In this document: positions 19,790-44,060 of the stretch, in pieces | Layout of the letters: each line of letters opens with the position of its first letter | How positions within the stretch are numbered: the stretch's first letter is position 1 | DNA from: an uncultured bacterium | GTDB taxonomy: Bacteria > Hydrothermota > Tepidihabitantia > SM23-42 | Direction: 5' to 3' | Assembly: GCA_964419565.1 (NCBI GenBank) | Contig: CAYQPW010000001.1 | Coordinates: forward strand, 88,754-152,753 | DNA length: 64,000 nt | Translations under genes and position numbers: made by a program | Notes under the pieces: generated by a model | What the model was told of the DNA's origin: nothing | Databases searched by the model: none | The model's input: only the letters and a program-made list of their open reading frames with translations

Positions 19790-19838
19790 GGACCAGACAG
19801 TAGGAACTGAGAACTAGGCACCAGGAAGAAAGAGAGTA
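19769..19838 (+). repeat. 70-nt block identical to 22561-22630 (last 7 codons KIVKIR* of a T9SS cargo gene plus 49 nt downstream)
   Basis: Exact match by eye: aagatagtcaagattaggtagggaccagacagtaggaactgagaactaggcaccaggaagaaagagagta. Confidence 0.85.
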
Positions 19839-19965
19839 AAGAGAAAGGGAATACACTGCGTTGAAGTTACATTTCATTGAAGTCACATCCGCCACACAGC
19901 ATGGCGGATTGCAGACACGCTCCGCTGAAGTTACAAAATAAACTAGAATAATCTGATATCCTGAT
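19790..19965 (+). repeat. mosaic intergenic repeat element, copy 1 (related to 22582-22640, 30800-30990(-), 42655-42975, 43890-44060)
   Basis: Shares ...agagaaagggaatacac..., the hairpin atccgccac-N-atggcgg and tgaag(a/t)(c/t)aca sub-repeats with 42665-42760. Boundaries approximate. Confidence 0.6.
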
Positions 19966-20260
19966 ATACTTTGTAAACTAAATGATCCGAACGTTCAAAT
20001 ATGTAAAAATATACCCAACATAAGGTATTTTCTTCATACAAAGGCAAATTCTGCGCAAAATCACGTTGAATTCCACGATATTATTTTAAAAAACGGGCAT
20101 GGATATTGCGAAATAGACATGCATGAAGAACACTGGGCCCTTCACCAATATGTTGGTGCGGGGTGGGATTAGACAAATCCCGACCTTTGTACAAGGCCGC
20201 GTGGACACTGGAGATTTTCACCCAAACATCATGTTTGGGGGGATCCCTTGGAGGTGATTT

Positions 20261-20530
20261 ATGGTCGGAACAGTAAGTAAAGTCGAACCAGAAGTATGCA
20301 CCTATATCGATCCGCAAGAGAACAGCTTGACCATAGAAGTTATCCTGCCAGGTGCTCACAAGAACAGCATCAAACTCAAAGTCAATTCGCGATGTCTGTT
20401 GGTCTATGCAGCTTCAGATACTGTCAACTATGCAAAATACCTGACATTTAAAGATCCAGTAGCTGCGGAAAAGGCAAAAGCTGAATACGAGAATGATATA
20501 CTACGCGTCACAGTATCTCTGAGGGCTTGA
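20261..20530 (+). CDS. minimal alpha-crystallin-domain (Hsp20-like) protein, 89 aa; paralog of 42984-43256
   Basis: GGAGGTG RBS. ...SLTIEVILPGAHKNSIKLKVNSRCLLVYA...AEYENDILRVTVSL fits the ACD beta-sandwich pattern. ~55% identity to the 90-aa ORF at 42984-43256. Confidence 0.6.
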   Translation: MVGTVSKVEPEVCTYIDPQENSLTIEVILPGAHKNSIKLKVNSRCLLVYAASDTVNYAKYLTFKDPVAAEKAKAEYENDILRVTVSLRA

Positions 20531-20646
20531 TATGATCGAGTCCCTCAATGAAAAGGGTGGTATTATGTGATAATAATAAGGTAATGATATGTTCTCATAG
20601 AATTGGAGTGGCGTATATCGCCGCTCCTTTTTCATTATTAGCTGCT

Positions 20647-21498
20647 CTATTGAATATCTGAATAAGGGTCGCTGGAGAATAACCAGAAATGACATGTACC
20701 GATTCTTATTCTCGGCATCGATACTCCTTGTCCCAGCGCTCCACCGAGGTCATCTATAACGATTTCACTGACCGGATAAGTACGTATTTCACCAGGCGAG
20801 ACCGTAAGGACCTCTGTTGTCCCGCCTTCGATAGCGAATTCACTTGCGCATGAAGCATACCCTTCAACGATCTCGCCGCCGGCAAGAATGCATTTTTCGG
20901 TTACTTCCAGGACGAGCGCATTCGCTTTGATCGACCATGATCCGGCTATGCTCGACAGACGGTTGCCCCAATCCATCTGATTGGCGGTGATCTTGAATGC
21001 ATGATCAGGGTAAAAATAGATCAACTCACCATAACCGGCGGCGACCATCGGGCTTACATGCCAGATTCCGACCAGCTGGTCATCAGCCAGAGCGATAGCC
21101 TGGCTTTTTTTATGCGCTGGCTCGAATAGCTTGATCCTTTCGATGTTTATTGAATCGATCCATGTTAAATAATCATCAACGTTAGATGTGAGCGGTTCAT
21201 ACCAATAAAACTTACTGAACCATTCCTGCAAATCTTTTGATTTAAAAGCATATGCATGCTGGGCATAGATCATGTTCCTCAATAATCTCAGTTCATTTCC
21301 ATTTAATATCGCCAGATTATCATCTGAGAATACCCGCTGGAGTTGCTCAAGCGCGCCGTCATAAATGGCTTTAACCGCGTTATCATTATCGAGCTGTTCA
21401 TATGATTGCTTTTCAAATTCCTCGATTTCCTCCTGGGTAAAGGAAAACAGAAAAAGCGGGAGTAGCAGAATAATGATCTTAAGAGACGATCTGCACAT
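20647..21498 (-). CDS. hypothetical secreted protein (283 aa)
   Basis: N-terminal signal MCRSSLKIIILLLPLFLFSF. No recognisable domain. Confidence 0.5.
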   Translation of the reverse strand: MCRSSLKIIILLLPLFLFSFTQEEIEEFEKQSYEQLDNDNAVKAIYDGALEQLQRVFSDDNLAILNGNELRLLRNMIYAQHAYAFKSKDLQEWFSKFYWYEPLTSNVDDYLTWIDSINIERIKLFEPAHKKSQAIALADDQLVGIWHVSPMVAAGYGELIYFYPDHAFKITANQMDWGNRLSSIAGSWSIKANALVLEVTEKCILAGGEIVEGYASCASEFAIEGGTTEVLTVSPGEIRTYPVSEIVIDDLGGALGQGVSMPRIRIGTCHFWLFSSDPYSDIQ

Positions 21499-21597
21499 AT
21501 GCAGACATTGTAACTATCCTGTAATGTTTGTCAATACAAGCTGAAAATCCCTTGACATAGTTATAATCGAGAGTATATTTATCAAGGAGGTATAGCT

Positions 21598-22581
21598 ATG
21601 AGATTTTCCAAAAGTACTTTGTTTTTCTTCACCCTGCTTATTATACCGTGTTTTCTGGCAGGTGCTTCCGGGGATGTCTATGACATAGCAGCAAAGAGCA
21701 GCATAGTTAAGCCGCAGCCCATCGTCGAGACCCCGGTAGTGAGTGAACTTCAGGTGTATGCCGTGTTGTGGGACACGACGCACGGTGTTTATTTGGACTA
21801 CCAGCCATTTTCCCGGTATACGCAACTGGTCGCCAATCTTGCTGACAGCGGTTACACAATGGCATGCTGCGGTACTGGCGTGCATACAATGGACCTTTCC
21901 CAGTATGATGTCATTGTCATCGCAGTCGGTAGTAGCTGGTATAGCGTGTATACACAGGAGGAAGTAGACTCGCTGGTAAGCTATTATGGTCAGGGCCATG
22001 AGCGTGTTATACTCACCGGTGATATGAATTTTTGCGAGAACACATACTATGGGACTGCAGACAATATCGTCTTTACTGATAATCTTTTTGACTGGTTGGC
22101 TGAGACCGGCGGCATTCTCATTATGGGCGATAACCCGGGATGCGCTAACGGAAATGTCAACCCGGTTTGCAGTGCCTTTGACATGACTGCAGGCGTAGCT
22201 GCGCTCAGCCCCAATGATCTTTACTTCACGAATTTCGCGGCCCATCCTATTTTCAATAATGTTAGCACGGTCTATTACCGAGCAGCAGGTGAGGTGGCGG
22301 CCAATATACCCTCAGAGCCGATCGCCTGGACTGATACAAATCAGCCAACGATCGCTGAACGCGATGAAACAGTAGGCATAAAAGAAAATATGTCACGACC
22401 TACCGATTATCAATATATCGGTTCGACGATATTTTCCGGCTCCCTGAAACTGCCCAGTGATATTCCGTGCAGAGTCTACAATATTGCCGGACGTGACGTC
22501 GACGCCGCACACCTTGCCCTGGGGGTTTATTTTATCGAGATAGACGGAAAGATCACACATAAGATAGTCAAGATTAGGTAG
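21598..22581 (+). CDS. secreted protein with T9SS C-terminal sorting domain (327 aa)
   Basis: GGAGG RBS, signal peptide MRFSKSTLFFFTLLIIPCFLAGASG, C-terminus ...GVYFIEIDGKITHKIVKIR. The 3' end is nucleotide-identical to the 3' end of the M14 gene. Confidence 0.75.
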   Translation: MRFSKSTLFFFTLLIIPCFLAGASGDVYDIAAKSSIVKPQPIVETPVVSELQVYAVLWDTTHGVYLDYQPFSRYTQLVANLADSGYTMACCGTGVHTMDLSQYDVIVIAVGSSWYSVYTQEEVDSLVSYYGQGHERVILTGDMNFCENTYYGTADNIVFTDNLFDWLAETGGILIMGDNPGCANGNVNPVCSAFDMTAGVAALSPNDLYFTNFAAHPIFNNVSTVYYRAAGEVAANIPSEPIAWTDTNQPTIAERDETVGIKENMSRPTDYQYIGSTIFSGSLKLPSDIPCRVYNIAGRDVDAAHLALGVYFIEIDGKITHKIVKIR

Positions 22582-22640
22582 GGACCAGACAGTAGGAACT
22601 GAGAACTAGGCACCAGGAAGAAAGAGAGTAGGGCGTAGGG
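22582..22640 (+). repeat. mosaic intergenic repeat element, copy 2 (short)
   Basis: First 49 nt identical to 19790-19838, then diverges. Confidence 0.6.
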
Positions 22641-22735
22641 TGTAACAAGAAAGCATATTAGGAAATCAAAGTATCAGTGGGAAGCGGATCAGGCTATCAG
22701 AAAACCAGGTAAATAGAAAGACCAAGCCCGACTCC

Positions 22736-22763
22736 TTGACTTCATTTCCTATAAGAATATAAT
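22736..22763 (+). promoter_or_regulatory. candidate sigma-70 promoter TTGACT-N16-TATAAT for the histone-fold-like gene
   Basis: TTGACT 22736-22741, TATAAT 22758-22763, ~70 nt upstream of the ATG at 22834. Confidence 0.45.
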
Positions 22764-22833
22764 CTATTGCGCTAAACACTCTGCGTACCATGCGCGACGC
22801 TGTTTGCTGTTAGTGCAGAAAGGAGTCTGAAGA

Positions 22834-23142
22834 GTGGATAAGAAAGATGTTATGGATTTACAGAAAGTAAATAAGGACGTGGTCCTTGCACAGTTGAGGA
22901 ATTTAGTTGACCCGTTGTTTTTGAGCAATGATATATTGAAACACGTTGAGAAATATTTTTCGTTTGACGAAATCGAGAAAAAGGTGAGTACGGGAGCGAT
23001 CCGGCGTAATGACGTTTCCGATTTTGTTATCGTTTTTGCACAGGTTTTACGTAAGGATGTTAAGGCATCAGGACGCACCGTGATTGAAGCGAGTGATATC
23101 GATGCTGCATATGCCAGAGTGAAAGACCGCTCTCCTTTCTGA
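22834..23142 (+). CDS. small histone-fold-like protein (DUF1931-like), 102 aa
   Basis: GGAG RBS. C-terminal ...DFVIVFAQVLRKDVKASGRTVIEASDIDAAYARV resembles the histone alpha2-L2-alpha3 region (archaeal histone ...GRKTIKAEDIELA). Confidence 0.4.
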   Translation: MDKKDVMDLQKVNKDVVLAQLRNLVDPLFLSNDILKHVEKYFSFDEIEKKVSTGAIRRNDVSDFVIVFAQVLRKDVKASGRTVIEASDIDAAYARVKDRSPF

Positions 23143-23144
23143 TT

Positions 23145-24053
23145 ATGTTATTCTTGGCTCGTTTAGTTTTGTGTATTTTGCTCCTTGCGCCAGCGATAGT
23201 TTTTTCTGGAGATGGACCAGCAGATCCTGCCTTGTATGAAAACAAATGGCTCGTCATTATCGGCAACTACCGCTCTTTTGATATGGCTGAAGATGCTAAT
23301 AACAAGGGCGGGTATCATGCATCAATATTGCTTTCAACACACTTTGAAAACCTCGTACCTGGTTGGTATGTGCTGGTCATGAAGGAATTTTTCTCCAAAA
23401 AACAAGCCCAGGAATTTTCACAAGAACTCATGGATGTTCAGGGGATTGAAAACTATATTAAGAACTGCGGTCAGCTATTTTTTTCTGACGAACAGAGGTA
23501 CCGGATAGTCGAACTTGATGATGAGGATTACTCTTCCATGGGCCCATACACTTTTTATCATATTGGCAATGAATCTCCAGACCAGAAAAAAACTGTGTCT
23601 TTTGAGTCCCATGAGGAAGATCCAGAAGAATTCCCCGTTGTGAGGATGATCCATGATACAAATGCTTTTTATGAGCTATATGTATTTGCTAATACCGAAG
23701 ATATAGCATGGTCTTCAAGATCAGATAAATTCGCATTTGTCGATTACGATGCGTTATATCTTGGTGGCGATCAAAGGTTGTACATTCTCGATGTACACAC
23801 TTTTGCCCATGTTGATTTTTCATTGCACGAACTCATTGAAGGAGAGGATTTTGAAAATCGAAGCATGTTGACTCTTTATAATTTGGAATGGCTGGCGTCA
23901 GGTGATGGGGTCATTTTCAGTATGGATGTTGATTTTTTAGGAACATCAGGAGATGACATGGTCGACCGACACCGTATTGAAAAACTCGGAGAAAATTTCG
24001 GTTCCAGTTCACCTGTTTTTGCCGGTAATTATATTGTATATCTAAAACCATAA
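23145..24053 (+). CDS. hypothetical secreted protein (302 aa)
   Basis: Signal peptide MLFLARLVLCILLLAPAIVFSG. Acidic, no recognised domain. Starts 2 nt after the previous stop. Confidence 0.5.
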   Translation: MLFLARLVLCILLLAPAIVFSGDGPADPALYENKWLVIIGNYRSFDMAEDANNKGGYHASILLSTHFENLVPGWYVLVMKEFFSKKQAQEFSQELMDVQGIENYIKNCGQLFFSDEQRYRIVELDDEDYSSMGPYTFYHIGNESPDQKKTVSFESHEEDPEEFPVVRMIHDTNAFYELYVFANTEDIAWSSRSDKFAFVDYDALYLGGDQRLYILDVHTFAHVDFSLHELIEGEDFENRSMLTLYNLEWLASGDGVIFSMDVDFLGTSGDDMVDRHRIEKLGENFGSSSPVFAGNYIVYLKP

Positions 24054-24061
24054 CGAACAAT

Positions 24062-25147
24062 ATGAGATTTTTTTTACGCATTACGCTCTACCCGTTGCTC
24101 CCTACACTGTTGCTCTCAACAACCTGGACACCAGTCGAAAAGAAATGCCCGATCTGCGGTACAAAAAGCGAATACTATGAAATAACGAGTTATGGTTCAT
24201 ATGTTTATGATTACCCTTCAAGATTCGAATATATTTTCTGGCCATATACTGACGGCAAAGCTCTCTATTCCTGCAGAAAATGCTGGTTTACGTGTTTTAT
24301 GTGGGATTTCGAAGATATACCGGAAAGCAAGCATAAAGAGATTCGAAAGTTCGTCGACAGTCTTGATCTGTATGAAACGAATGGTGATTATTATGTTATC
24401 CCTATGTCTTACCGGCTTTTACTTGCCGAACGGATTTATGAAATACTCGGTAGGGATGAGGAATTCTGGTGTCACTTTTATCGGGTAAAAGGGCACCACA
24501 TGGCAAATGAAGAAAAGTTTGCTCATGCAGCAGAGGCGCGTACAAAAGCACTCAATATAGCTGAAGGCATGCTGCAAGATGAGAACAAAAAAGGTATCCG
24601 CAAAGAGCTGTACATTATAACTGGCGCCATGAGGTATCTTCTTAATGATCTGCAAGGTGCATTGCAAGATTTCAAACAGGCAAAAAACTTGACTTTTGGC
24701 AATGCTAACTGGAACAAAGAGAGTCTAAAGGATATAAATATTTACCTGTCGAAATTGGTCGATGACTATATAGAAAAGATCGGCGAGAAAGAGGGCAAGG
24801 CAGTGTTTTCTACGATGCCGACAATCGTTGAACTGTATGAAGAACCCGATGTGTTCATTGATTCAGTGGTCACTGTGACCGGGATACTGGTAAATAAGGG
24901 AACTGGATATTTTAGAGATTTTAACCCTGTGCTTATGGACGGGACCGGTAATATTATGCCCGTGACTATTTGGGCTCCGCTTGAATTGCCGCCGCCGATA
25001 AATCCTGATCTGACACCGCCAAAGGTGATGAGTTCTTATTTGAATAAGGAGGTCAGAGCGGGCGGTTATTTTCGCAAGGACGATACAGACCGTTTTGATG
25101 GTGACTATTATTTCGAGGTTTTCGACGCCCAGATAGTAGAAGAATAG
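24062..25147 (+). CDS. hypothetical protein with N-terminal CxxC...CxxC zinc-ribbon-like region and helical repeat region (361 aa)
   Basis: Hydrophobic N-terminus; ...KKCPICGTKSEYYE...YSCRKCWFTCF...; TPR-like helices in the middle. Confidence 0.5.
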   Translation: MRFFLRITLYPLLPTLLLSTTWTPVEKKCPICGTKSEYYEITSYGSYVYDYPSRFEYIFWPYTDGKALYSCRKCWFTCFMWDFEDIPESKHKEIRKFVDSLDLYETNGDYYVIPMSYRLLLAERIYEILGRDEEFWCHFYRVKGHHMANEEKFAHAAEARTKALNIAEGMLQDENKKGIRKELYIITGAMRYLLNDLQGALQDFKQAKNLTFGNANWNKESLKDINIYLSKLVDDYIEKIGEKEGKAVFSTMPTIVELYEEPDVFIDSVVTVTGILVNKGTGYFRDFNPVLMDGTGNIMPVTIWAPLELPPPINPDLTPPKVMSSYLNKEVRAGGYFRKDDTDRFDGDYYFEVFDAQIVEE

Positions 25148-25193
25148 TAGGCACTAAGCAGCGAAAAAATTGATTGCAGATACCAGGGGTATG

Positions 25194-27629: not shown

Positions 27630-27680
27630 ATATAGTTCCTTTAATATTGGACAACAGCAGATGATATAAGGTTTAAGAAT

Positions 27681-29165: not shown

Positions 29166-29175
29166 GATATCTCCT

Positions 29176-30741: not shown

Positions 30742-30799
30742 GATGCTGCATTATAACTGACAATAATACCGTGTCAAGCAAAGTCAGAGCCTGACTCAT

Positions 30800-30990
30800 C
30801 TCAATCTTATTTTGTCCTTTAATAACTCAATTATTTAATGACTTAATAACTGCTCTTTTACGAATACGATTCTCCAGGAACGAAGTGACATGTCTCCAGC
30901 ATCAGCGTGTCTTCAGGTTTCGATAGAAACCATGTCTTCAGACTTGTTGTTTAGTTGTGTATTCAGTTACTGCCTTTACTTGACAATCCT
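30800..30990 (-). repeat. mosaic intergenic repeat element, copy 3 (core in inverted orientation relative to 42700-42760)
   Basis: caggaacgaagtgacatgtctccagcatcagcgtgtcttcag is the reverse complement of ~42712-42750 at ~90% identity. Also ...tatttaatgacttaataactgctcttttacgaatacgatt... related to 42880-42940 and 43910-43940. Boundaries approximate. Confidence 0.55.
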
Positions 30991-31007
30991 TATTGTGCCA
31001 TTATAAT
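30980..31007 (+). promoter_or_regulatory. consensus sigma-70 promoter TTGACA-N16-TATAAT for the propeller/T9SS gene
   Basis: TTGACA 30980-30985, TATAAT 31002-31007. GGAGG RBS before the ATG at 31024. Confidence 0.5.
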
Positions 31008-32313: not shown

Positions 32314-32454
32314 GCACTTATGTCATTCCCCGACTCGATCGGGGAATCTAGTAATGCCATTCATATATGGATTATCCGGTCAAGCCGGATAATGACAAAC
32401 AATAACACAATGACTTCCCGCGCAGCGAAATCCTCCCCGTTGTATTATAACATT

Positions 32455-32520
32455 ACTATAGATATATGGAGCGAGGGCAGGCGATTTTCCGATATTATTT
32501 TCTAATATGAAAAATTGGGA
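32455..32520 (+). repeat. conserved ~65-nt intergenic element, copy 1 (copy 2 at 45713-45780)
   Basis: attactatagatatatggagcgagggcaggcgattttccgatattattttctaatatgaaaaattggg versus attactttagatatatggaacgagggcaggcgatttacctatgttttttctaatatgaaaaatcggtc, ~85% identity. Not preserved at peptide level. Confidence 0.6.
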
Positions 32521-32631
32521 CAATGACTTTCACCCTGTTCGACATGGACGTCGACTGCAGTGAAACCTTTTGTCCAAATCTTACGTATAATAAGCAATGA
32601 ATAACAATATTAGAAAGAATAAGGAGGTAAA

Positions 32632-33054
32632 ATGTTGAGTTTGATCAGTGCTATTTTATTAGCTGCAAATGTATTCTGTGTTCAGCCCATGGCTGATTAT
32701 GTCTCAGAAAATCAAGAGATCGGGAATTTGCCCGAAATAGTCATTACTGCCCCGAGGTATGAAGGTGAGGATATAGCTTATAGCGGAATGCTGCCAGAAA
32801 TACTCGTAACCGCGCCTCGAGGACCTGAAATAGGTATGCTCGACGAGATCGTTATTGCAGAACCGCGCTTTGAAGGTGAGGATATAGCTTACAGCGGGAT
32901 GTCGCCCGAGACCATAGTTACGGCAAAAAGGCATAGAATTACTCAGCCGGTCCTCACATTTATGCGTCTGGTAAGGCACGAAGTGCCTGTGCGCATAACC
33001 AGTCTGCTCATCGTTAAAAGACTCGATTCCCGCAATATCGGGTATTTAAACTAA
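32632..33054 (+). CDS. small secreted protein with internal repeats (140 aa), hypothetical
   Basis: AAGGAGG RBS, signal peptide. Repeated (E/P)EI(V/L)(I/V)TAPR.EGEDIAYSGM(L/S)PE units. Confidence 0.55.
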   Translation: MLSLISAILLAANVFCVQPMADYVSENQEIGNLPEIVITAPRYEGEDIAYSGMLPEILVTAPRGPEIGMLDEIVIAEPRFEGEDIAYSGMSPETIVTAKRHRITQPVLTFMRLVRHEVPVRITSLLIVKRLDSRNIGYLN

Positions 33055-33098: not shown

Positions 33099-33144
33099 CA
33101 TAGCGAAAACCGCTTGACTAACGGGTAAAAACATGGCATATTAA

Positions 33145-36100: not shown

Positions 36101-36513
36101 TGACCCATGACGCCGAGATGCTATTTCAAGAGGGTAAGATCCATCTTGCCGAGATCAAACTCAAGGGAGCAATGGAGCTTTATCATGGTGATTTTCTTGA
36201 AAATACGTACGATCCCTGGGTCGAGGATGTTAGAAACACGTACGCTGCCTTGTACCGTGAGCGCATGTTAATGCTGGGCAGAATATATTTTAAGAAACTG
36301 AAATTTGAAAGTGCAATACAACTCGGCAAAACAATCTTAGCATCCGATCCTTTCGACGAAGAAGGGCACCGTTTTTTGATGCGTGCACACCTTGGCAGCG
36401 GCGAAAAGGCCAAAGCGATAAATCAATACAAAAAATGTGTTGAATTATTCAAAAGAGAACTCAATTGTCTGCCTTCAGAAGAGACCCAGCAAGTATATAA
36501 AAAACTCCTTTAA
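33145..36513 (+). CDS. STAND-type AAA ATPase - TPR - C-terminal SARP (OmpR-type wHTH + BTAD) transcriptional regulator
   Basis: P-loop ...FITGETGIGKTRLVDEF... (Walker A), long TPR-like middle region. C-terminal ...AKPKQLLSILI...GLRVDRAKIGSMLWPE... (wHTH) followed by ...LYHGDFL...DPWV...R...Y (BTAD). True start may be the ATG at 33193 (MKPNSFLDSIFIGRKKEI). Confidence 0.75.
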   Translation: MHIYDTTTINRQRICPMKPNSFLDSIFIGRKKEITLLKKKLNDVLGNNGNCLFITGETGIGKTRLVDEFISKEAGNALVFRLDAKSHTSSARDFFAEIIRLYLQRVSHNTRTITKAIDDQMYNEFADTLPELSLYYPYEAKTRDKAITGSEMNALFYRFLSNTTDLAPVILIIDDFHESACDVRDLLEYLLQHIGDGSAFLVLIARENPALLKWFDEVESQSVERIVLHHLDEEELMDLNATLFKNEMDEIFIKWLCAKTKGVPLFLKEFLYAMFEKGIIYYDSENTRWKTISSYLQIDIPDRVTEMIKSRFQNLPDDTIIFLKVASVIGDNFDPSITVLNGKKAIISSLRRMGFITKKHDEYVFAHPLIRETLYEQIPAQEKIKLHHKIGDFFLEHGYKKQAVEHLLSAHEKSTRVLQLLLRLGKESRQAGDYARSHHYLENALSIARQKNKIAPKKLVDIMLDFSKSLFLYEKYGQFFDLSKTIIPFIKKHRLNVDDKRLLSYYNELTQVLRHLGKYQEALKMVNRGLRLIRKVKAGKFDELELELVMNRAFLLKNMGKVDNALHQVLKIKEIYADTASSFDRYNIYRLLGSIYNEKHNFKEAVTYRETALAAAQETQIGHIIAASLGNLGVSYANSGELTKGMGYLRQYQNYNIRAGRLRAELVSYIHIAQIYFNQGYFPRAESEFNKGIKRWTRFGTRLKEVQYELEYRYGTFLVVDEKYEKAHGHLMTALKLAEEFDNQTVKIYPLLNLGCLYVGIKDKKNLNRTLKTISDSFKDSAKKFATFNILRGFQSLFEKKRKKGLEQIEKGLQMLRSMKNMTGLFRLLYLCIIYLKAGKAGEKIIRQYMTEARDIAQRLHMTGWLERFDVKQKKPAAQPLKIHCCGSFLIEHPVHGLIGDEQWQRAKPKQLLSILISSMLTGLRVDRAKIGSMLWPELSTTKMINNFHVCLHQLKAIIGKHYIKHVRGVYRLENVWIDVDKFKELTHDAEMLFQEGKIHLAEIKLKGAMELYHGDFLENTYDPWVEDVRNTYAALYRERMLMLGRIYFKKLKFESAIQLGKTILASDPFDEEGHRFLMRAHLGSGEKAKAINQYKKCVELFKRELNCLPSEETQQVYKKLL

Positions 36514-36600
36514 GCCACCCCAGTAGATCCCTGAAAGCGTTGTCAGTGTTTACTTTAAGCATGTTAAGAGCGATGTTAAGAAGTCCCTGTATAATGATCT

Positions 36601-36798
36601 ATGAAAGAAATAATAGCGATTTGTTCAAAATGCGGTTTTGTTTCGGTTACAAAAAAAGAGAAGTATTGTCCCAATTGCGGATTAGAATTGATCAAAAAAT
36701 GCCCGTACTGTAAAGAACCGATCGATCATCCTATGGCGCAGTATTGTCCGGTCTGCGGGGCGATGTATACACAACCAAAAACCGTAAACCGGAGATAA
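36601..36798 (+). CDS. double zinc-ribbon protein (65 aa)
   Basis: Four CxxC pairs: CSKCG...CPNCG...CPYCK...CPVCG. Confidence 0.55.
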   Translation: MKEIIAICSKCGFVSVTKKEKYCPNCGLELIKKCPYCKEPIDHPMAQYCPVCGAMYTQPKTVNRR

Positions 36799-36818
36799 TG
36801 TTGGTAAGAGGAGGAAAC

Positions 36819-39701
36819 ATGAAAGGTTTGAAATTGTGCATTATAGCACTGTGTACAGTGTTTCTGCTGTATGCACAGACATCTGGCGTATCCGTTGACA
36901 ATATACGTTTAGCGCCAAGATTACTCAATTACCAGGCGTATCTGACCGATACACTCGGTGTGCCGATCGATGATTCGCTCGACATGACAATAAAAATCTT
37001 CGATGCGGTATCGGGTGGTAATGAGCTGTGGTCAGAGACCCAGACGAATGTGCCTATCGAAAGCGGTGTTTTCAGCGTCATGCTCGGTGAAGTAACGCCG
37101 ATACCAGATAGTGTGTTCTCTGATTTCACAGACACATGGATTGAATTGACACTTGAGGGACCCCAGATATTGACACCCCGTACGCGCATTACCTCAGTCG
37201 GCTATGCCTATACTTCAACGTATTCGGACACGAGCGAGTATGTAAGGATCGGCTTGCCAGATAGTGATTGGGTTTTTAACAACAATCGTCTTTACCCGGC
37301 TGGTGATTATGGGTTAGCCATGCGCAGCAGTAATGTGATGTGGGGTACAGCTTTCAATACCCATGTTAATTTTGGGGTTGCGTGTACGACCGGAGTTTTG
37401 ATGCTTAACAATGAATACTGTACAGTGGGCGGCGGCTATCGTAACCGTGCAACTTATTCTTCAGCGACGGTTGCTGGTGGCTGGCAGAATACAGCAGCTC
37501 ACCATTATGCTGCGGTTGGTGGTGGAAGTTATAATTATAATGGCGGTTATTATTCAGTTATCCCTGGCGGTTATGCCGATACGATCACTGCGACAGGTGG
37601 TTATTCATATTTGTTCGGCATTAACTCGAACCTTACCCAGGATTCAACCTTTATGGTCGACATGCCGCACATAAGATTCGGCGATGAGTCGAGTGGCTAT
37701 GAATTCCCGGTTCAGGACGGGTCAAACGGGCAGGTGATCCTGGCAAATGGCAGCGGTCAGTTATCCTGGACCAACATTTCGTCTTTAGGCAACTGGCCCA
37801 AGATCGATTCAGTGCTTTATACAAATAAGTACTGGGGTATTGCGCGCGGTGGTGCTGATAATGTTCTATATGGTGACAGCACGCATACTCATATTAATTT
37901 AGGAGCAGCATGCACGACCGGTATGAGTGGCTACAATATCAGATATTGCACAGTCAACGGCGGATACCGAAACCTTGCCACTAATAACGGTGCAACGGTA
38001 CGTGGTGGATTGTTGAATTTCGCAGGAGGTAATTATTCATCCGTAGGTGGCGGTTGTGCTGATAGTGCTGAACATCACTATGCAACAGTGGGTGGTGGGG
38101 ATTTTAACCGCGCCAGGCAGCAATATGCAACAGTCGGTGGCGGGAAGGATAACGACGCTCGTGAATACTATACGGTGGTTTGCGGCGGCGAGGTCAACCG
38201 CGCTCGTGCACAATGCGCAGCAGTTGGAGGCGGGCAATATAACATTGCCGACGATCGTTGTGCAATTGGCGGCGGATTTAGTAAGAGCGCTTCTGGCTTC
38301 TGTGCTGCAGCAGTTGGGGGAGATGCAAGTATTGCAACAGATGATTTTGCGGCGATTTGCGGTGGACTAAATAACCATGCCTCTTTAGATTATTCAAATG
38401 TGGGAGGTGGATATAATAACGCGAGTTGGTTGGATTATTCGACGATAACCGGCGGTTATGCAGATACAGCGTGGGCACGGTATGGCGGTATTATATCGGG
38501 CTGGCACAATACTGCGGGCGATACCTTGACTGATACTGCCGCTTTTGTCGGCGGCGGAAGAGATAATGCAGCGTTTGCACCGTATGCGTTTGTAGGCGGC
38601 GGTTATGCAGATAGTGTATGGGCTATGTACGGCGGTATTATATCGGGTTGGCATAATATCGCAGGAGATGCATCAACTGATACTGCTGCATTTATTAGTA
38701 GTGGAAAAGACAACGCCGCGATAGCACAATATTCAACGGTAAATGGTGGGCATGCCGACACAGTTCATGGCGTATATGGCGGTATAGCGTCTGGATACAG
38801 TAATTTTGCCGGTAATGTAGTATCAGATACCGCAGCAAATATAGCTGGCGGCTGGAGCAATCTTGCCGCGGCCAAATACTCATTTGTCGGCGGCGGTCGT
38901 GATAACATTGCCGACAGTGCCTATGCTGTGGTTGGCAGTGGATATCACAACAGCTCCAGTGGTAACTATACGACCGTGATCAGCGGATTGAATAACAGAA
39001 CATATGCGCGATACGCGGCCGTGGGTGGTGGAATAAATAACCGGGCAAACGCACAATATGCAACGGTAAATAGCGGCGATCAAAATACAACCAGCGGCGA
39101 TTATTCGACTATTGCAGGCGGCTATGCCGATACTGTTGCAGCATATGCTGGTTTTGCGACAAATTATAGTACCAAGGTCAATGTCAGCGATACTAATTCA
39201 GCTGCATTTACGACAAGTCATACGACCGCGCCAAATCAAGTTCGTGCTGCAGCATTCTCTACCGGGTCATTGGTCTTTTCTATGGACCATCCAATAAACC
39301 CTGCAGAGAAGATCCTTAACCAATATGCCGTTGGATCATCCGAGGCAGTGTTGTTATATAACGGCAATGCATTTATTGGAGAAAACGGTCGTATCAGAGT
39401 TTTCTTACCCAATTATTTTGATGGGATTAATAAGAATCCACGCATTCAATTGACCGGTGTTGGTTCTTCTGATGTTGTGTATGTGGTAAAAGAAGTTAAA
39501 GGCAATTCATTTATTATCGGCGGTAAACCGGGTATGAAAGTTTACTGGACGGTTACTGCGGAGCGCGAAGATATTCATGCTGAGATCGCGCGCATTCATA
39601 CACCGATTGAACAACCAAAAACCGATGATCTCATCGGGCATTCACTTGACCATGATGCATCCATCGGATTCAGTGGATATTGGTTTTTGAGGGGGGAATA
39701 A
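36819..39701 (+). CDS. large secreted beta-roll repeat protein (adhesin / tail-fibre-like), paralog 1 (~960 aa)
   Basis: Start moved to the ATG at 36819 (GAGGAGG RBS, signal peptide MKGLKLCIIALCTVFLLYAQ). Conserved ~110-aa N-domain (LLNYQ.YLTDT.G.PIDDSLDMT.KIFDAVS.GNELWSETQT.VPIE.GVFS). Tens of 15-aa (Y/F)ATVGGG..N.AS.. repeats. Motif YSYLFGINSNLTQDSTFMVDMPHI.FG...GYEFP..DGS.GQ.L...GSGQLSW. Conserved ~170-aa C-domain. No T9SS tail. Confidence 0.8.
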   Translation: MKGLKLCIIALCTVFLLYAQTSGVSVDNIRLAPRLLNYQAYLTDTLGVPIDDSLDMTIKIFDAVSGGNELWSETQTNVPIESGVFSVMLGEVTPIPDSVFSDFTDTWIELTLEGPQILTPRTRITSVGYAYTSTYSDTSEYVRIGLPDSDWVFNNNRLYPAGDYGLAMRSSNVMWGTAFNTHVNFGVACTTGVLMLNNEYCTVGGGYRNRATYSSATVAGGWQNTAAHHYAAVGGGSYNYNGGYYSVIPGGYADTITATGGYSYLFGINSNLTQDSTFMVDMPHIRFGDESSGYEFPVQDGSNGQVILANGSGQLSWTNISSLGNWPKIDSVLYTNKYWGIARGGADNVLYGDSTHTHINLGAACTTGMSGYNIRYCTVNGGYRNLATNNGATVRGGLLNFAGGNYSSVGGGCADSAEHHYATVGGGDFNRARQQYATVGGGKDNDAREYYTVVCGGEVNRARAQCAAVGGGQYNIADDRCAIGGGFSKSASGFCAAAVGGDASIATDDFAAICGGLNNHASLDYSNVGGGYNNASWLDYSTITGGYADTAWARYGGIISGWHNTAGDTLTDTAAFVGGGRDNAAFAPYAFVGGGYADSVWAMYGGIISGWHNIAGDASTDTAAFISSGKDNAAIAQYSTVNGGHADTVHGVYGGIASGYSNFAGNVVSDTAANIAGGWSNLAAAKYSFVGGGRDNIADSAYAVVGSGYHNSSSGNYTTVISGLNNRTYARYAAVGGGINNRANAQYATVNSGDQNTTSGDYSTIAGGYADTVAAYAGFATNYSTKVNVSDTNSAAFTTSHTTAPNQVRAAAFSTGSLVFSMDHPINPAEKILNQYAVGSSEAVLLYNGNAFIGENGRIRVFLPNYFDGINKNPRIQLTGVGSSDVVYVVKEVKGNSFIIGGKPGMKVYWTVTAEREDIHAEIARIHTPIEQPKTDDLIGHSLDHDASIGFSGYWFLRGE

Positions 39702-42667
39702 TGAAATTATTCAAGATACTTCTTTTATTCTTATTCGTATTTTGTAATCTCTATGCACAGATGACACGTGTTTCAATGGACAATGGACGGTTGGTGCCTC
39801 AGCTGCTCAATTACCAGGGCTATCTTACTGACACGACTGGTATTCCAATTGATGATTCGCTCGATATGACGTTTAAAATATTTGATGCCGTGTCGAGCGG
39901 TAATGAATTGTGGTCAGAAACACAGACAAGTGTCCCGATCGAGCGCGGCGTGTTCAGTATCATACTCGGTGAGATAACACCGATCCCGGACAGTGTCTTT
40001 GACGATTTTTCAAACACATGGTTCGAGCTAACACTTGAAGGACCTCAGACCTTAGCGCCCCGCACGCGCATCACGTCAGTAGGGTATGCATATACTTCAA
40101 CGTATTCGGACACGGCTGAGTTCGCAAGAGTGGGCGCAGCAGATAATGACTGGATTGTCAACAGTAATCGTCTTTACCCGGCTGGTGACTATGGGTTAGC
40201 GATGCGCAGCAGTAATGTCATGTGGGGGTCAAATCTCAATACCCACGTGAATTTTGGCGTGTCCTGTACGACCGGTACCCTCTTACAGAACTATAATTAC
40301 TGCACTATCGGCGGTGGCTATCGTAATCGTGCAACACATTCTGCGGCGACCGTTGCCGGTGGATATCAGAATACCGCGGCTTATCATTATGCTGCGGTGG
40401 GCGGTGGGCGTTACAATTATAATGCCGGTTACTATTCAGTTATTCCAGGCGGTTATGCAGATACGATCACCGCGACCGGTGATTATTCGTATCTTTTCGG
40501 TATCAACAGCAACCTCACCCAGGATTCGACCTTCATGGTCGACATGCCGCACATTTGGTTTGGGAATGAAACAGGCGGGTATGAATTTCCAACATCAGAT
40601 GGTTTGGCTGATCAGACATTAATCACAGATGGCAGCGGACAGCTGAATTGGTCTGATGTGCCGTCATCAAGCAACTGGTCAGTTACCGATTCTGTGCTTT
40701 ATACAAATAATTACTGGGGTCTGACCCGCGGTGGTGCTGATAATGCTCTTTATGGTGATTTTGCTTATAGCCATGTCAATTTAGGAGTTGCATGCACGAC
40801 TGGATATTACCTAAGTAATAATTCATACTGCACTGTCAGCGGTGGATATCAAAACTCCGCCAGTGACTGGTACGCCACAATTGGCGGAGGTTTACAGAAC
40901 ATTGCGAGTGACTGGTACGCGACGGTCGGTGGAGGTTTACAGAATACGGCCAGTAATAACTACACGACCATAGGCGGCGGAGACAATAACCAGGCACTTG
41001 AACAGTATGCAACGATCGGCGGCGGATGGAATAACACTGCTGGTGGTTTATTTTCCACTATTGGCGGCGGTTATTGGAACACTGCAATTGGTGATTATGC
41101 AGCGATCTGCGGAGGACAGAGTAATCTGGCTGCTGGCGATTATGCAACTGTAGTTGGCGGTCAAAATAACCTTGCTGATAGCGCCTATACGACTATTGGC
41201 GGTGGTTATTATAATAAGGCGAGTGGTGATTATGCAGCAGTGAGCGGCGGTTATTATAGCCATGCTCTGGGCTATTGTACATATGTTGGTGGTGGTTATC
41301 GTAATAATGCAGTTGGTTATTGTGCGTTTGTAGGCGGCGGTTATGCGGATACAACGCGCGCAGATTATGGCGGTGTTGCATCGGGTTGGCATAATACTGC
41401 AGGAGATGCTTTGACTGATACCGCTGCGTTTGTGGGCGGCGGGAAAGATAATGCAGCTTTTGCACCGTATGCGAATGTCGGAGGTGGCTATGCAGATACT
41501 GTATGGGCTTTATATGGCGGTGTTGCATCGGGTTGGCATAATACTGCAGGAGATGCTTTGACTGATACCGCCGCGTTTGTGGGCGGCGGCAAAGATAATG
41601 CAGCGCTTGCACCGTATGCGAATGTTGCTGGTGGATATGCAAATACGGTTCAGGCACTGTATGGCGGTGTTGCATCGGGTTGGCATAATATAGCAGGAGA
41701 TGCTTCTAATGATACCGCTGCGTTTGTCGGCGGCGGGAAAGATAATGCCGCGTTTGCGCCGTATGCGAATGTCGGAGGCGGCTATGCAGATACTGTTTAT
41801 GCAGTGTACGGTGGTATTGGTTCTGGATACAGTAATCTGGCCGGCGATGAGACGGCAGATACTGCAGCAGCGGTTGCAGGTGGCTTGAACAATTCAGCTA
41901 CGGGTAAATATTCGTTTGTCGGCGGCGGTCGCGATAACATCGCCAGTGCAGATTACGCATCAGTAGCCAGTGGGTTTCAGAATACGGCCAGCGGCAATTA
42001 TGCGGTAGTAGCCGGCGGTTATGATAATACTGCTTCATCCTATGCGAGTTTTGCGGCGAATTCCGGCTCTCAAGCCTCCCACAATATGTCCGCAGCGTTT
42101 ACTATTAGCCATACCACAGCACCACTTCAAGTCCGCGCAATGGCGTTTTCCACAGGGACATTGGTTTTCTCGATGGATCATCCGTCCGATCCGATGAACA
42201 AGATACTCAATCAACATGCTGTGGGGTCTTCTGAGGCAATATTACTATATAATGGTACTGCGACTATTGAAGAAAATGGTCGTGTCGAGGTATTGCTTCC
42301 TGATTATTTTGAAAAGATCAATAGGAATGCCTGTATCCAGATAACCGGTGTCGGTTCTTCTGAGGTCGTGTTTGTTGCCGAAGATTTAAAAGGAAATTCA
42401 TTTATTATCGGCGGTCAGCCCGGCACAAAAGTCTACTGGACTGTGACCGGCGAGCGTACGGATATCCACGCCGAGATCGCGCGCACCCTGACCCCGGTCG
42501 TCCAGGAAAAGACCGGTGATTTGATCGGACACTCGCTCGACGATGATGCGCTCATCGGTATTTACGATCGCCTGCAGCAAGAAAAACCTGGTATGTTTTC
42601 ATTTAAAACTGAAGAAGGCCGCCGTGTCCACGAACAGAGTAAACAAACTGTAGAGAGTAGGGAGTAG
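39701..42667 (+). CDS. large secreted beta-roll repeat protein, paralog 2 (~988 aa), tandem to paralog 1
   Basis: ATG at 39701 overlaps the upstream stop (TAATG). Signal peptide MKLFKILLLFLFVFCNLYAQ. Same architecture; N- and C-domains ~75% identical to paralog 1. Confidence 0.8.
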   Translation: MKLFKILLLFLFVFCNLYAQMTRVSMDNGRLVPQLLNYQGYLTDTTGIPIDDSLDMTFKIFDAVSSGNELWSETQTSVPIERGVFSIILGEITPIPDSVFDDFSNTWFELTLEGPQTLAPRTRITSVGYAYTSTYSDTAEFARVGAADNDWIVNSNRLYPAGDYGLAMRSSNVMWGSNLNTHVNFGVSCTTGTLLQNYNYCTIGGGYRNRATHSAATVAGGYQNTAAYHYAAVGGGRYNYNAGYYSVIPGGYADTITATGDYSYLFGINSNLTQDSTFMVDMPHIWFGNETGGYEFPTSDGLADQTLITDGSGQLNWSDVPSSSNWSVTDSVLYTNNYWGLTRGGADNALYGDFAYSHVNLGVACTTGYYLSNNSYCTVSGGYQNSASDWYATIGGGLQNIASDWYATVGGGLQNTASNNYTTIGGGDNNQALEQYATIGGGWNNTAGGLFSTIGGGYWNTAIGDYAAICGGQSNLAAGDYATVVGGQNNLADSAYTTIGGGYYNKASGDYAAVSGGYYSHALGYCTYVGGGYRNNAVGYCAFVGGGYADTTRADYGGVASGWHNTAGDALTDTAAFVGGGKDNAAFAPYANVGGGYADTVWALYGGVASGWHNTAGDALTDTAAFVGGGKDNAALAPYANVAGGYANTVQALYGGVASGWHNIAGDASNDTAAFVGGGKDNAAFAPYANVGGGYADTVYAVYGGIGSGYSNLAGDETADTAAAVAGGLNNSATGKYSFVGGGRDNIASADYASVASGFQNTASGNYAVVAGGYDNTASSYASFAANSGSQASHNMSAAFTISHTTAPLQVRAMAFSTGTLVFSMDHPSDPMNKILNQHAVGSSEAILLYNGTATIEENGRVEVLLPDYFEKINRNACIQITGVGSSEVVFVAEDLKGNSFIIGGQPGTKVYWTVTGERTDIHAEIARTLTPVVQEKTGDLIGHSLDDDALIGIYDRLQQEKPGMFSFKTEEGRRVHEQSKQTVESRE

Positions 42668-42975
42668 AGAGAAAGGGAATACACATCCGCCACATTCATG
42701 GCGTATTGAAGACACGCTGACGCTGAAGACATGTCACTTCGTTCCTGAAGGCACGCTACGCTGAAAAAAACCAGAAAAGCTGGAAGGACAAATATAACGA
42801 TATCAACGATCTCTAACTTAAATCACTGCAATCTGCTTATGCATCTCTGTAATCGACACCGTGGGTGAAACGATCTAAACGATCCAAACGTCTTTTAACA
42901 ACTTAGTTACTTAATGACTATTCTTTTACTAATCCTTTTTGTTTTGCTGCTTACTGCCTAGTTCCTAGTGCCTAC
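42655..42975 (+). repeat. mosaic intergenic repeat element, copy 4 (longest)
   Basis: Begins ...agagaaagggaatacacatccgccacattcatggcg...ttgaagacacgctgacgctgaagacatgtcacttcgttcctgaagg... Ends ...ttgctgcttactgcctagttcctagtgcctactgtc, which resembles the inverted 19795-19825 motif and 44008-44045. Boundaries approximate. Confidence 0.55.
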
Positions 42976-42983
42976 TGTCTTTT

Positions 42984-43256
42984 CTACGATCTCAGTGGCA
43001 TTTCGATGCGCAAAAGTCCGTGTCCAAATGCAGCTATCGCCTTTTTCGCGATGACCGGGAAGCGGAAGCACATGTACTTGGCATAATGTATATCGCCGGA
43101 AACTGCAAAAAGGATCAAGCACCTGGAATTGACTCTTAATTTTATATTATTTTGTGAGACATTGGGCAGCACTATCTCGACGGTCATATGATTCATCTGG
43201 TCATCAAGGTACGTGCATACCTCAGGCTCTAATTTCTTGCGGATAAAGGGCTTCAT
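42984..43256 (-). CDS. minimal alpha-crystallin-domain (Hsp20-like) protein, 90 aa; paralog of 20261-20530
   Basis: ...EPEVCTYLDDQMNHMTVEIVLPNVSQNNIKLRVNSRCLILFA...LLRIEMPL. Start overlaps the upstream gene stop (ATGA). Confidence 0.6.
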   Translation of the reverse strand: MKPFIRKKLEPEVCTYLDDQMNHMTVEIVLPNVSQNNIKLRVNSRCLILFAVSGDIHYAKYMCFRFPVIAKKAIAAFGHGLLRIEMPLRS

Positions 43257-43657
43257 AAGAATGTAATCTCCTTTAAAGCGGTCAAAATCGCAAATATCCG
43301 CTCATTGTTACTTGCTCTATCAATTGGATTGAAGAAGAAACCCTGGCGCTGTACTGAATAACCATTAGTGATCCCGTAGAGAATTTCGCCATCCAGAAAT
43401 TCAACCTTTACTTTTTTACCGTAAACTTTTATTCCTTTAAAATCGTCGAAAGATTTCTTTAATGACGAATGGCCGTTTCCATTCAAGTCCTTGACAAAAA
43501 AGACCGCTTTGAGCACGTGCGTGTGCACGATAAACGGTCTATCTCCTTGTTCTGTTTTTATCATTAGATGGAATACTTCCTTATCCGGGTTAAAGTCGGT
43601 TGTATAGCCCCGGATAATTGCTCCATCAAGAAAACGTGCGACAACTTTATTTAACAT
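43253..43657 (-). CDS. hypothetical protein with internal duplication (134 aa), translationally coupled to the ACD-like gene
   Basis: Two related halves: ...VARFLDGAIIRGYTTDFNPDKEVFHL... and ...VEFLDGEILYGITNGYSVQRQGFFFNP... Confidence 0.5.
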   Translation of the reverse strand: MLNKVVARFLDGAIIRGYTTDFNPDKEVFHLMIKTEQGDRPFIVHTHVLKAVFFVKDLNGNGHSSLKKSFDDFKGIKVYGKKVKVEFLDGEILYGITNGYSVQRQGFFFNPIDRASNNERIFAILTALKEITFL

Positions 43658-43889
43658 GATCCATTCCTTTCTATATTTATATACAGCAGATACTCGACTT
43701 TATTCATTGTAAAGGGTTTTCGAGTTCGTGTTTTAATAGGCTTCATACCCTTATAATATGCAAATCATATGCCAGTCAAATGTTTTGAAATTTCAAGGAT
43801 TTATAGATATTTCATGCACAAATCAACAGTTCTCTGCACAAAAATTGTGCAGTATTTTAGCTCTTCTGGTCTTTTTTGTTTTTTTAGTT

Positions 43890-44060
43890 ACTCAATTACA
43901 TAATTACTATTCTCTTACGAACACGAATAACGATTCACGAATACGATTTTATTTGGTCTTTTTAGTTATTGTGGTTTTTCTCTTTGCTCTTTACTCATTA
44001 CGCCATACGCTTTTGCTGCTTACTGCCTACTTCTTAGTGTCTGCTGTCCGTTTACTCAGT
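43890..44060 (+). repeat. mosaic intergenic repeat element, copy 5
   Basis: ...tacgaacacgaataacgattcacgaatacgatt... and ...ttgctgcttactgcctacttcttagtgtctgctgtc, related to 30850-30870 and 42938-42973. Confidence 0.5.

Follow-up and report, generated by a model that had tools for sequence, protein, structure and literature searches.

What are the short stretches of DNA that recur, in differing combinations, between the genes of an uncultured bacterium of the SM23-42 lineage, and why do several of them start where a gene ends? We analysed 73 kb of one genome, composed of a 64-kb window (contig CAYQPW010000001.1, positions 88,754 to 152,753, renumbered from 1 below) and the 8.8 kb upstream of it. 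Two window proteins have their nearest named homologs in candidate division WOR-3; to our knowledge, little is known of the non-coding DNA in this uncultivated lineage. The window has a G+C content of 45.5%, and its genes carry sigma-70-type promoters and Shine-Dalgarno sites. An original prediction, made from the sequence of the window, had described at least five intergenic loci sharing sub-modules in varying order and orientation, and had likened them to MITEs (miniature inverted-repeat transposable elements), repetitive extragenic palindromic (REP) elements or a family of small RNAs. We find that the loci are a genuine family of non-coding intergenic repeats, built from stop-rich heptamer tracts and a core of short boxes around a hairpin, and that this family is a variant of known bacterial intergenic repeats (heptamer assemblages and STAR/BOX-like elements).

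Seven linked intergenic loci

Seven intergenic loci, designated A (from 19790), B (from 22582), C (from 30800), D (32314-32631), E (from 42650), F (from 43885) and G (45425-45787), are linked to one another by Smith-Waterman scores far above those of composition-matched shuffles (z = 7-35). The closest pairs are A-B (34.8), C-E (31.9) and D-G (30.1), followed by B-G (20.5), A-E (15.0) and E-F (11.6); pairs with nine control spacers reach z <= 6.3, and most stay below 4.5. The loci listed in the original prediction are real and its six quoted sub-modules all lie where it had placed them, but its count was too low, since the network comprises at least seven loci.

Self-BLAST with short words likewise returns significant matches among the loci, with E values down to 5e-33. 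This lowest value belongs to 19769-19838 and 22561-22630, which are 100% identical over 70 nt. A 44-nt module at 42707-42750 recurs inverted at 30872-30915 with 93-95% identity (42707-42747 against the reverse strand of 30875-30915: 95%, E = 6e-11). The tract TTGCTGCTTACTGCC... at 42942-42979 matches 44011-44048 (89%, E = 2e-4) and is the reverse complement of the tract that follows the stop codons at 19790 and 22582, and 42662-42684 matches 19834-19856 (E = 0.013). Two further modules had been missed: one of 64 nt shared by 45712-45774 in G and 32452-32515 in D (91%, E = 1e-12), and one of 38 nt shared, on opposite strands, by 45650-45687 in G and 22684-22721 in B (92%; 45650-45684 against the reverse strand of 22687-22721: 94%, E = 2e-7). 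The element AGAGAAAGGGAATACAC is present exactly at 19840-19856 and 42668-42684; with up to 3 mismatches it has 3 matches against 0.22 expected, and 0 of 100 shuffles reach 3. Taken by themselves, ACGAATACGATT and TTACTTAATGACT are of insufficient length for significance; they stand in register within longer alignments. No further copy was found in the 8.8 kb upstream of the window or in the window's other 38 kb.

A fixed order of modules

Do the sub-modules really vary in order and orientation? For the main family they do not: with every copy read along the strand on which it lies, the modules line up colinearly, and the order M1 < M4 < M2 < hairpin < M3 < M7 < M8 is kept in six copies with 0 contradictions. 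M1 denotes GACAGTAGGNACTNRGAACTAGGCA, M4 GCAGTAAGCAGCAAAA, M2 AGAGAAAGGGAATACAC, M3 the TGAAGNYAC boxes, M7 heptamers of the AATCGTATTCG type (CGAATAC) and M8 the AT-rich tail TAAAAGAATAGTCATTAAGTAACTAA. M5 and M6 (loci B, D and G) are separate short repeats that share spacers with the main family. The composition of the six copies is as follows.

Copy A: M1, M2, hairpin, M3
Copy B: M1
Copy C (all on the minus strand): GAATACAC, hairpin, M3, M7, M8
Copy E-left: M2, hairpin, M3
Copy E-right: M1, M4, M8
Copy F: M1, M4, M7, M8

The copies look mosaic because each keeps a different subset of parts, and no two of them are alike over their full length. The inversion described earlier at 30878-30920 does lie on the minus strand, but it is the whole element of locus C that lies there, not one module. 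Listed below are the parts of each locus with coordinates and strand.

19790-19838, plus strand: locus A, M1; directly 3' of the TAG stop of the M14 peptidase/T9SS (type IX secretion system) gene 18038-19789; degenerate heptamers, identical to 22582-22630; stop 12 nt ahead of the motif, purine fraction 0.76, lag-7 autocorrelation z = 2.7
19839-19856, plus strand: locus A, M2 (AGAGAAAGGGAATACAC), the last heptamer-like units; exact second copy at 42668-42684
19853-19978, plus strand: locus A, core; TGAAGNYAC boxes at 19862, 19878, 19910 (TGCAGACAC) and 19926
19887-19909, plus strand: locus A, GC hairpin inside the core
19931-19976, plus strand: locus A, AU-rich inverted repeat containing TCTGATATCCTGATAT at 19952-19967
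22582-22630, plus strand: locus B, M1; same tract as in A, after the stop of the T9SS-tail gene 21598-22581
22631-22683, plus strand: locus B, further degenerate heptamers (GTAGGGC GTAGGGT GTAACAA ...); period 7 at 22628-22644 by Tandem Repeats Finder (TRF); lag-7 z = 2.9
22684-22721, plus strand: locus B, M6 (GCGGATCAGGCTATCAGAAAACCAGGTAAATAGAAAGA), 92% complementary to 45650-45687
30800-30965, minus strand: locus C, whole element, between two divergent consensus promoters
30957-30965, 30932-30940 and 30916-30931, minus strand: locus C, GAATACAC, a box and the hairpin, respectively
30872-30915, 30860-30871 and about 30818-30858, minus strand: locus C, M3, M7 (ACGAATACGATT) and the AT-rich tail M8, respectively
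32452-32515, plus strand: locus D, M5, 64 nt, upstream of the 140-aa gene 32632-33054; 91% identical to 45712-45774
42650-42684, plus strand: locus E-left, heptamers (GTAGAGA GTAGGGA GTAGAGA) and M2; TRF period 7, 3.1 copies
42685-42706, plus strand: locus E-left, hairpin ATCCGCCACATTCATGGCGTAT
42707-42770, plus strand: locus E-left, M3 box array (TGAAGACAC, TGAAGACAT, TGAAGGCAC, TGAAAAAAA) with spacings of 17, 22 and 16 nt; 95% identical to the minus strand of 30875-30915
42868-42890, no strand assigned: middle of locus E, 9-nt tandem repeat AAACGATCY; TRF period 9, 2.6 copies
42903-42979, minus strand: locus E-right, after the stop of the 90-aa ACD-like gene 42984-43256; stop 10 nt ahead of the motif; TRF period 7
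42951-42979, 42940-42955 and 42903-42928, minus strand: locus E-right, M1, M4 and the AT-rich tail M8, respectively
43885-44048, minus strand: locus F, at the end of the GGDEF gene 44027-45424; lag-7 z = 5.5; three TRF period-7 arrays
44027-44048, 44011-44026, 43976-44001 with 43917-43949, and 43885-43919, minus strand: locus F, M1, M4, heptamers and M8, respectively
45650-45687, minus strand: locus G, copy of M6, downstream of the Fe-S oxidoreductase gene 45788-47629
45712-45774, plus strand: locus G, copy of M5, aligned with D

Heptamer tracts at the ends of genes

Much of each element is a decayed tandem repeat with units of 7 nt and 16-17 nt, a property that had gone unnoticed. The tract after the stop codon can be written as the heptamers TAGGAAC TGAGAAC TAGGCAC CAGGAAG AAAGAGA GTAAAGA GAAAGGG AATACAC. 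The types in this first tract (TAGGNAC, GTAGRGA and AAAGAGA) are poor in C and place stop codons in all three frames, the TAGGNAC type providing one every 7 nt. TRF reports period-7 arrays at 42650, 42955, 43917, 43976 and 44016, and all arrays of about three or more copies lie in E and F. Only A, B, E and F show an elevated autocorrelation at a lag of 7 (z = 2.7, 2.9, 2.7 and 5.5, respectively); C, D, G and the controls do not (controls z <= 1.1). The tandem 7-nt character thus resides in M1, M2, M4 and M7, and is not a property of the core, M5 or M6.

The position of these tracts is as distinctive as their sequence. In the sense of the upstream gene they have a purine fraction of 0.73-0.76; at other gene ends it is mostly about 0.5, and several of those ends carry canonical terminators. 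For all four copies of M1, the stop of a long open reading frame (ORF) in sense orientation is no more than 16 nt away, and tracts begin either with the stop codon or as much as about 20 nt earlier, within coding sequence. Accordingly, a tract encodes the final 6 codons of the adhesin-like gene 39680-42667 together with its TAG stop, and M1 encodes the final 7 codons and the stop of the GGDEF gene, the Pfam domain of the GGDEF protein ending at residue 459 of 465. By our own estimate about 1% of strand positions are this near a stop codon, so that three independent placements there would be very unlikely by chance. The earlier observation that some copies flank T9SS cargo genes and two small ACD-like paralogs holds as well. 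The 100% identity between A and B extends over 70 nt that include the last 21 nt of the coding sequence, and it ends at a sharp edge, the coding sequence upstream being only 75% identical, which suggests spread by gene conversion.

Away from the main cluster, such a tract is seen in its smallest form at 2523-2536, where a pair of CAGTAGT CAGTAGT units with stop codons lies 54 nt past the malic enzyme gene's own stop.

A box-hairpin core conserved in a related species

The core consists of a 16-17-nt unit repeated three or four times, with a TGAAGNYAC box in each and a short hairpin interrupting the array. Three or four such boxes per locus, spaced by 16-32 nt, are clustered only in A, C and E: of 19 exact occurrences of TGAAGNYAY in 128 kb of strand, 8 fall within three stretches (A, C and E) that total about 175 nt, and about 618 kb of other loci contain no cluster of at least three boxes except the ortholog of locus A. 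The same hairpin recurs at 19887-19909 (A) and 42685-42706 (E), whereas C has a different hairpin at this position, and M3 of both C and E contains the 8-bp palindrome GACATGTC.

Is any part of these elements maintained in other species? We compared four relatives, L022 (the closest), L023, L024 and L025 (72-75% protein identity); the orthologous comparison of the core concerns one locus, A, and one contig, L022. The M14 peptidase ortholog of L022 has 83% protein identity, and 3.7 kb of its contig can be aligned to the window, with 83% identity at the DNA level. Within this alignment 19853-19978 is identical at 124 of 126 bases, which the original prediction had not noticed, and both differences occupy variable positions of two boxes. 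In 60-nt sliding windows the genes range from 58 to 93% identity, the heptamer tract 19790-19858 from 47 to 68%, and 19859-19978 from 97 to 100%. By our calculation, at most 2 changes in 126 bases at a background divergence of 17% has a probability of about 2e-8. The conservation covers all codon positions. The cores of A, C and E differ from one another, while that of A is conserved with its own ortholog. From this pattern we infer that the box-hairpin core is under purifying selection.

In L023, L024 and L025 the gene order is kept, and both the core block and the heptamer tract are absent. L023 also lacks M5 in the orthologous spacer, gene B, the gene block at 25.2-30.7 kb and the BTAD gene. 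Next to the Fe-S oxidoreductase gene, relatives carry other genes where loci G, F and E lie; in the closest relative of that gene another gene follows, leaving no counterpart of G to compare. Taken together with the changed gene order, the absence of the modules from relatives indicates that they are lineage-specific and tend to sit at gene-order changes. An nhmmer profile of four cores, searched against the window and all other DNA compared here, recovered known copies only; a match in L003 (E = 0.034) was dropped as ordinary, probably coding sequence. A 62-aa protein query taken from the T9SS tail and aimed at paralogs gave no match.

The sequence TCTGATNTCCTGATAT, made of two CTGATAT units, is found in the window at 19952-19967, inside the locus A core, and at 58241-58256 (2 matches against 0.02 expected), as well as at 13847-13862 of L015 and 3114-3129 of L022. 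In two or more WOR-3 species it occupies either the 3' end of a gene or the spacer of a convergent gene pair.

Coding potential, RNA structure and transcription signals

Could the repeats be parts of genes that were overlooked? In gene calls the stretches lie outside long ORFs, and they contain no tRNA genes. Short ORFs do run over them, one of 124 aa at 43758-44132 across locus F, which has no Pfam match, and others of 37-56 aa antisense to A, C and E. We considered the latter as small peptides or type I toxins and rejected this: they share only what the DNA repeat forces and diverge completely after about 9-14 residues, also in the ortholog.

A family of small RNAs is not supported, since there is no Rfam match at gathering or permissive thresholds, the folds are no better than those of shuffles, and no pair of promoter and terminator frames any copy. 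The predicted stabilities of A, B, E-left, E-right, F and C do not exceed those of shuffles (z = -0.5 to +1.2, and -0.6 to +1.2 over the main modules), and the cores of E, C and the plus strand of A yield z = -1.1 to +0.4. Only one core strand folds better than its shuffles, the minus strand of A (19850-19985; z = -2.5, matched by 3 of 200 shuffles). Strong hairpins are confined to D (z = -4.2) and G (z = -8.4). No terminator-like site follows any core, and promoter-like sites are weak only, among them TTTACA, 18 nt, GATTAT on the minus strand inside the conserved block of A. Locus C fills the space between divergent promoters that match the consensus at 12 of 12 positions, 30750-30777 (minus strand) and 30980-31007 (plus strand).

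Heptamer arrays in other organisms and viruses

Scans of public genome and metagenome contigs with the M1 pattern returned only look-alike heptamer arrays from other phyla, the window's own copies not being among them. TAGGNAC arrays of this kind are present in metagenome-assembled genomes (MAGs) of a member of the Syntrophobacterales, a deltaproteobacterium and a member of the Bacteroidia, and in soil contigs, and several of them run up against stop codons. The array of the Bacteroidia contig leads into GGGAGAAAGAAT, after which comes (GTTGAA)n, a succession that locus A shows too. In viral contigs from IMG/VR, scanned for TAGGNACTAGGNACTAGGNA, we found 36 loci (L027-L062), including giant-virus MAGs, with perfect (TAGGNAC)n arrays of up to 19 units and the variants TAGGCAC, TAGGAAC, TAGGGAC and TAGGTAC.

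At many of the 33 distinct viral arrays, a long ORF terminates no more than 25 nt from one end or the other. Do the arrays act as fail-safe stops or as a strand-specific 'insulator'? We rejected both, as long ORFs end at the 33 arrays 12 times in sense and 12 times in antisense. CTAG is palindromic, so both strands carry TAG every 7 nt; with ORF ends equally frequent on both sides, gene ends appear simply to be where arrays are tolerated, and the strand symmetry argues against a strand-specific RNA role for the heptamers. PMC6764699 reports that no selection for additional stop codons was found in bacteria. Intergenic heptamer assemblages with stop codons have been described that are absent in close relatives and nearly identical beside paralogous genes (PMC4679880), and Geobacter provides further examples of heptamer repeats (PMC2700814).

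Positions 598-626 of the Syntrophobacterales MAG contig (L002) match window positions 42948-42976 in E-right exactly over 29 nt (GGCACTAGGAACTAGGCAGTAAGCA...), with convergent heptamer arrays in both spacers; this identity may reflect horizontal transfer or convergence. Another contig, L005 (JABAHS010004023.1), contains dozens of heptamer arrays in 14 kb with many units (AGGTGTC, GCATAGA, ATCCCAC and others), its organism being far richer in heptamer repeats than that of the window. A related WOR-3 species (L012) has intergenic repeats of its own that are unrelated to the present ones, at 14100-14260, 16870-16990 and 19210-19300. One is a tandem repeat of about 40 nt, and another a duplicated stretch of about 100 nt behind two adjacent genes, a T9SS tail being present in the first; the stretch includes a hairpin and a promoter-like site.

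Origin and possible function

How did the family arise, and what, if anything, does it do? We lean towards a lineage-specific composite non-coding repeat, whose tracts would originate by slippage and be copied between gene ends by recombination, and whose core would be held by selection. Short tandem units that slip during replication may create the tracts and let them decay; the tracts would then be copied from one gene end to another by gene conversion or homologous recombination, sometimes together with neighbouring genes, and transposition would not be involved. A stop-bearing tract that reaches a gene would truncate it by a few codons only, and gene ends would therefore be the places where tracts are tolerated. 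The heptamers themselves are probably near-neutral filler. The core most likely acts in cis as a platform to which a putative protein binds, on 3' untranslated RNA or on DNA. A and E lie in probable 3' untranslated regions (3' UTRs) and C lies upstream of two promoters.

Several observations weigh against this account. Slippage was not directly observed: in seven other samples the same strain is represented by contigs with 99.94-99.98% identity to the window and 0 indels. The case for selection depends on a single orthologous comparison, and exchange of a short patch by recombination between the two lineages would leave an identical pattern. At locus C no gene precedes the element in sense orientation, and its position between divergent promoters fits a DNA-level role, or none, better than a role in 3' UTRs. 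Finally, the copies are few and all within 26 kb, which leaves the notion of a dispersed family dependent on one region.

A bolder version of this account would make the 126-nt core and its paralogs at 42685-42770 and 30872-30965 a novel class of cis-acting elements in WOR-3, a putative protein-bound TGAAGNYAC platform around a hairpin that selection keeps near-invariant while the stop-rich heptamers shield it from ribosomes and from RNA structure; we regard it as doubtful. That the cores are small regulatory RNA genes or structured cis-regulatory RNAs with heptamers as spacers is unlikely. The near-invariance of the locus A core, the fold and the weak promoter-like site of its minus strand, and the different hairpin that locus C carries at the position used in A and E would all suit such RNAs, but the missing Rfam matches and the shuffle-like folds of E, C and plus-strand A do not, no intrinsic terminator follows any core, and the three cores are too unlike in layout for one fold. 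Might the TGAAGNYAC boxes instead be operator- or iteron-like sites for a transcription factor of the neighbouring genes, the rest being filler? Each of the three loci contains 9-bp boxes in direct orientation, spaced by 16-17 and 22-32 bp, locus C exactly fills the space between two divergent -35 boxes, GACATGTC is a palindrome of 8 bp in M3 of C and E, and the locus A core lies about 280 nt upstream of a conserved ACD-like gene. However, the spacings are not multiples of the helical turn, the boxes in A and E are fixed in orientation relative to the upstream gene and stand behind genes rather than before promoters, and no candidate regulator is linked to them; we judge this reading highly improbable.

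Mobility would offer a different origin, in which the copies are non-autonomous elements (MITE, REP/bacterial interspersed mosaic element (BIME), or BOX-like) that prefer gene 3' ends and depend on a transposase encoded elsewhere. Copies have fairly sharp borders in unrelated contexts, vary in presence among related species and sit at synteny breaks (gene B, the 25.2-30.7 kb block, the region beside 45788), and REP/BIME (PMC2817692) and BOX (PMC3049150) are likewise extragenic and modular. Yet the likeness to MITEs does not stand, because a within-locus inverted-repeat search finds no terminal inverted repeats at element ends (a 16-nt, 81% inverted pair in locus E joins two separate convergent elements) and alignments across the borders of M1/M4, M3, M5, M6 and M8 reveal no target-site duplications. 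Nor does the likeness to REP, the sole recurring palindrome (ATCCGCCAC...) having 2 copies in 64 kb, both in the same orientation. Pfam scans of the window proteins found no transposase, as had been stated before, and no integrase, the 47.6-55.2 kb block being read from precomputed annotation only; nor was a RAYT gene seen in these scans. Loci A and E and module M3 match no plasmid, phage or viral contig, and full-length likeness between copies is absent. Mobility is thus decidedly unlikely. Integron attC sites were rejected as well: there is no integrase in the window, and an informal look by eye found no GTTRRRY/RYYYAAC core sites at the ends. As for chance matches between low-complexity spacers, or unannotated coding sequence, the biased composition of the tracts and the short ORFs across them might invite such a reading; it is refuted by alignment scores far over those of composition-matched shuffles, by long exact matches (E values down to 5e-33), by ORFs that are not conserved beyond the shared DNA and, in the case of the 124-aa frame, match no Pfam family, and by an ortholog of locus A conserved at all codon positions, and we give it next to no credence.

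Simple tandem units of 7 nt and 16-17 nt can build what appears to be a mosaic repeat family, and such tracts can overwrite the last codons of genes; for annotators, 'mosaic repeats' by gene ends need not be relics of transposons. The stretch 19853-19978, which changes far less than the surrounding genes, is a concrete candidate regulatory element.

Relation to known intergenic repeats

Which described repeats does the family resemble most? Heptamer assemblages, exemplified by the TAACTGA repeats of Beggiatoaceae, Cyanobacteria and Bacteroidetes (PMC4679880), share with it tandem, intergenic 7-nt units that bear stop codons, several heptamer types per spacer with similar units in distant phyla, near-identical spacers flanked by paralogs, and absence from the spacer of close relatives. 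Unlike these, the window arrays are short and decayed, with 3-8 imperfect units of TAGGNAC or GTAGRGA and not TAACTGA; they abut stop codons and not start codons, and they are joined to a non-heptamer core. Cyanobacterial STRR sequences are further intergenic heptanucleotide repeats.

The core, in turn, resembles the STAR elements of Staphylococcus (PMC3532100) in its short, directly oriented box with short spacers in intergenic DNA, and in a locus-specific sequence kept within a lineage, a likeness examined here at one locus (A). It differs in the sequence of the box, the length of the unit and the phylum; the window shows just three arrays, and expansion or contraction was not observed in the window strain (0 indels in seven other samples). 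Since features of heptamer assemblages are found in the tracts and features of STAR-like repeats in the core, we file the family with these known kinds.

BOX elements of Streptococcus pneumoniae, with the arrangement boxA-(boxB)n-boxC (PMC3049150), are comparable in a fixed order of modules that are present or absent in each copy, in being non-coding and in their restriction to one species group; BOX is co-transcribed with neighbouring genes. In contrast to the window modules, which have no excess structure and 6-7 copies, BOX elements fold extensively into secondary structure and number more than 100. The REP/BIME repeats found in enterobacteria and pseudomonads (PMC2817692) are also mosaic and extragenic and lie at the 3' ends of genes and between convergent ones, but the window family has few copies and is devoid of imperfect palindromes of 20-40 nt in alternating orientation, and no RAYT accompanies it in the window. 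With bacterial MITEs (PMC3184786, PMC10969869) it has in common that it is small, non-coding, multicopy and intergenic; it differs from them in the missing terminal inverted repeats and target-site duplications, and no related insertion sequence was found in the window.

Additional features of the window

Perfect sigma-70 consensus promoters (12 of 12) are located at 30750-30777 (minus strand), 30980-31007 (plus strand) and 45525-45552 (minus strand). The first ends 8 nt before the ATG of a beta-lactamase-like gene, which suggests a leaderless mRNA.

The hairpins of loci D and G are predicted to be stable and have no U-run. At 32321-32397, after the FG-GAP/T9SS gene, two adjacent stems (z = -4.2) have a counterpart with different stem sequence in L023; at 45580-45628, downstream of the Fe-S oxidoreductase gene, a 19-bp stem is formed (z = -8.4). 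Both are probably terminators of a non-canonical type.

Three adhesin-like paralogs (36744-42667, 61829-64000) contain internal repeats of 45 nt (15 residues) and 147 nt in which GGG-x-N-x-A is frequent; there is a 22-nt overlap between the first two, and the only Pfam match found for the paralogs is a weak one to the UspA1 repeat. The gap of 881 nt in the ORF map at 49779-50659 is not intergenic, as its equivalent in L009 is a called gene for a membrane subunit of NADH-dehydrogenase type.

Upstream of the 89-aa ACD-like gene (20261-20530) lies a conserved structured leader (20128-20260), also present at 3280-3379 of L022, 11905-12113 of L023, where it is tandemly duplicated, and 7560-7674 of L025. 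It has no Rfam match and could be an undescribed cis-regulatory RNA, with three predicted hairpins in which 7 of 22 predicted pairs show compensatory changes among four WOR-3 relatives.

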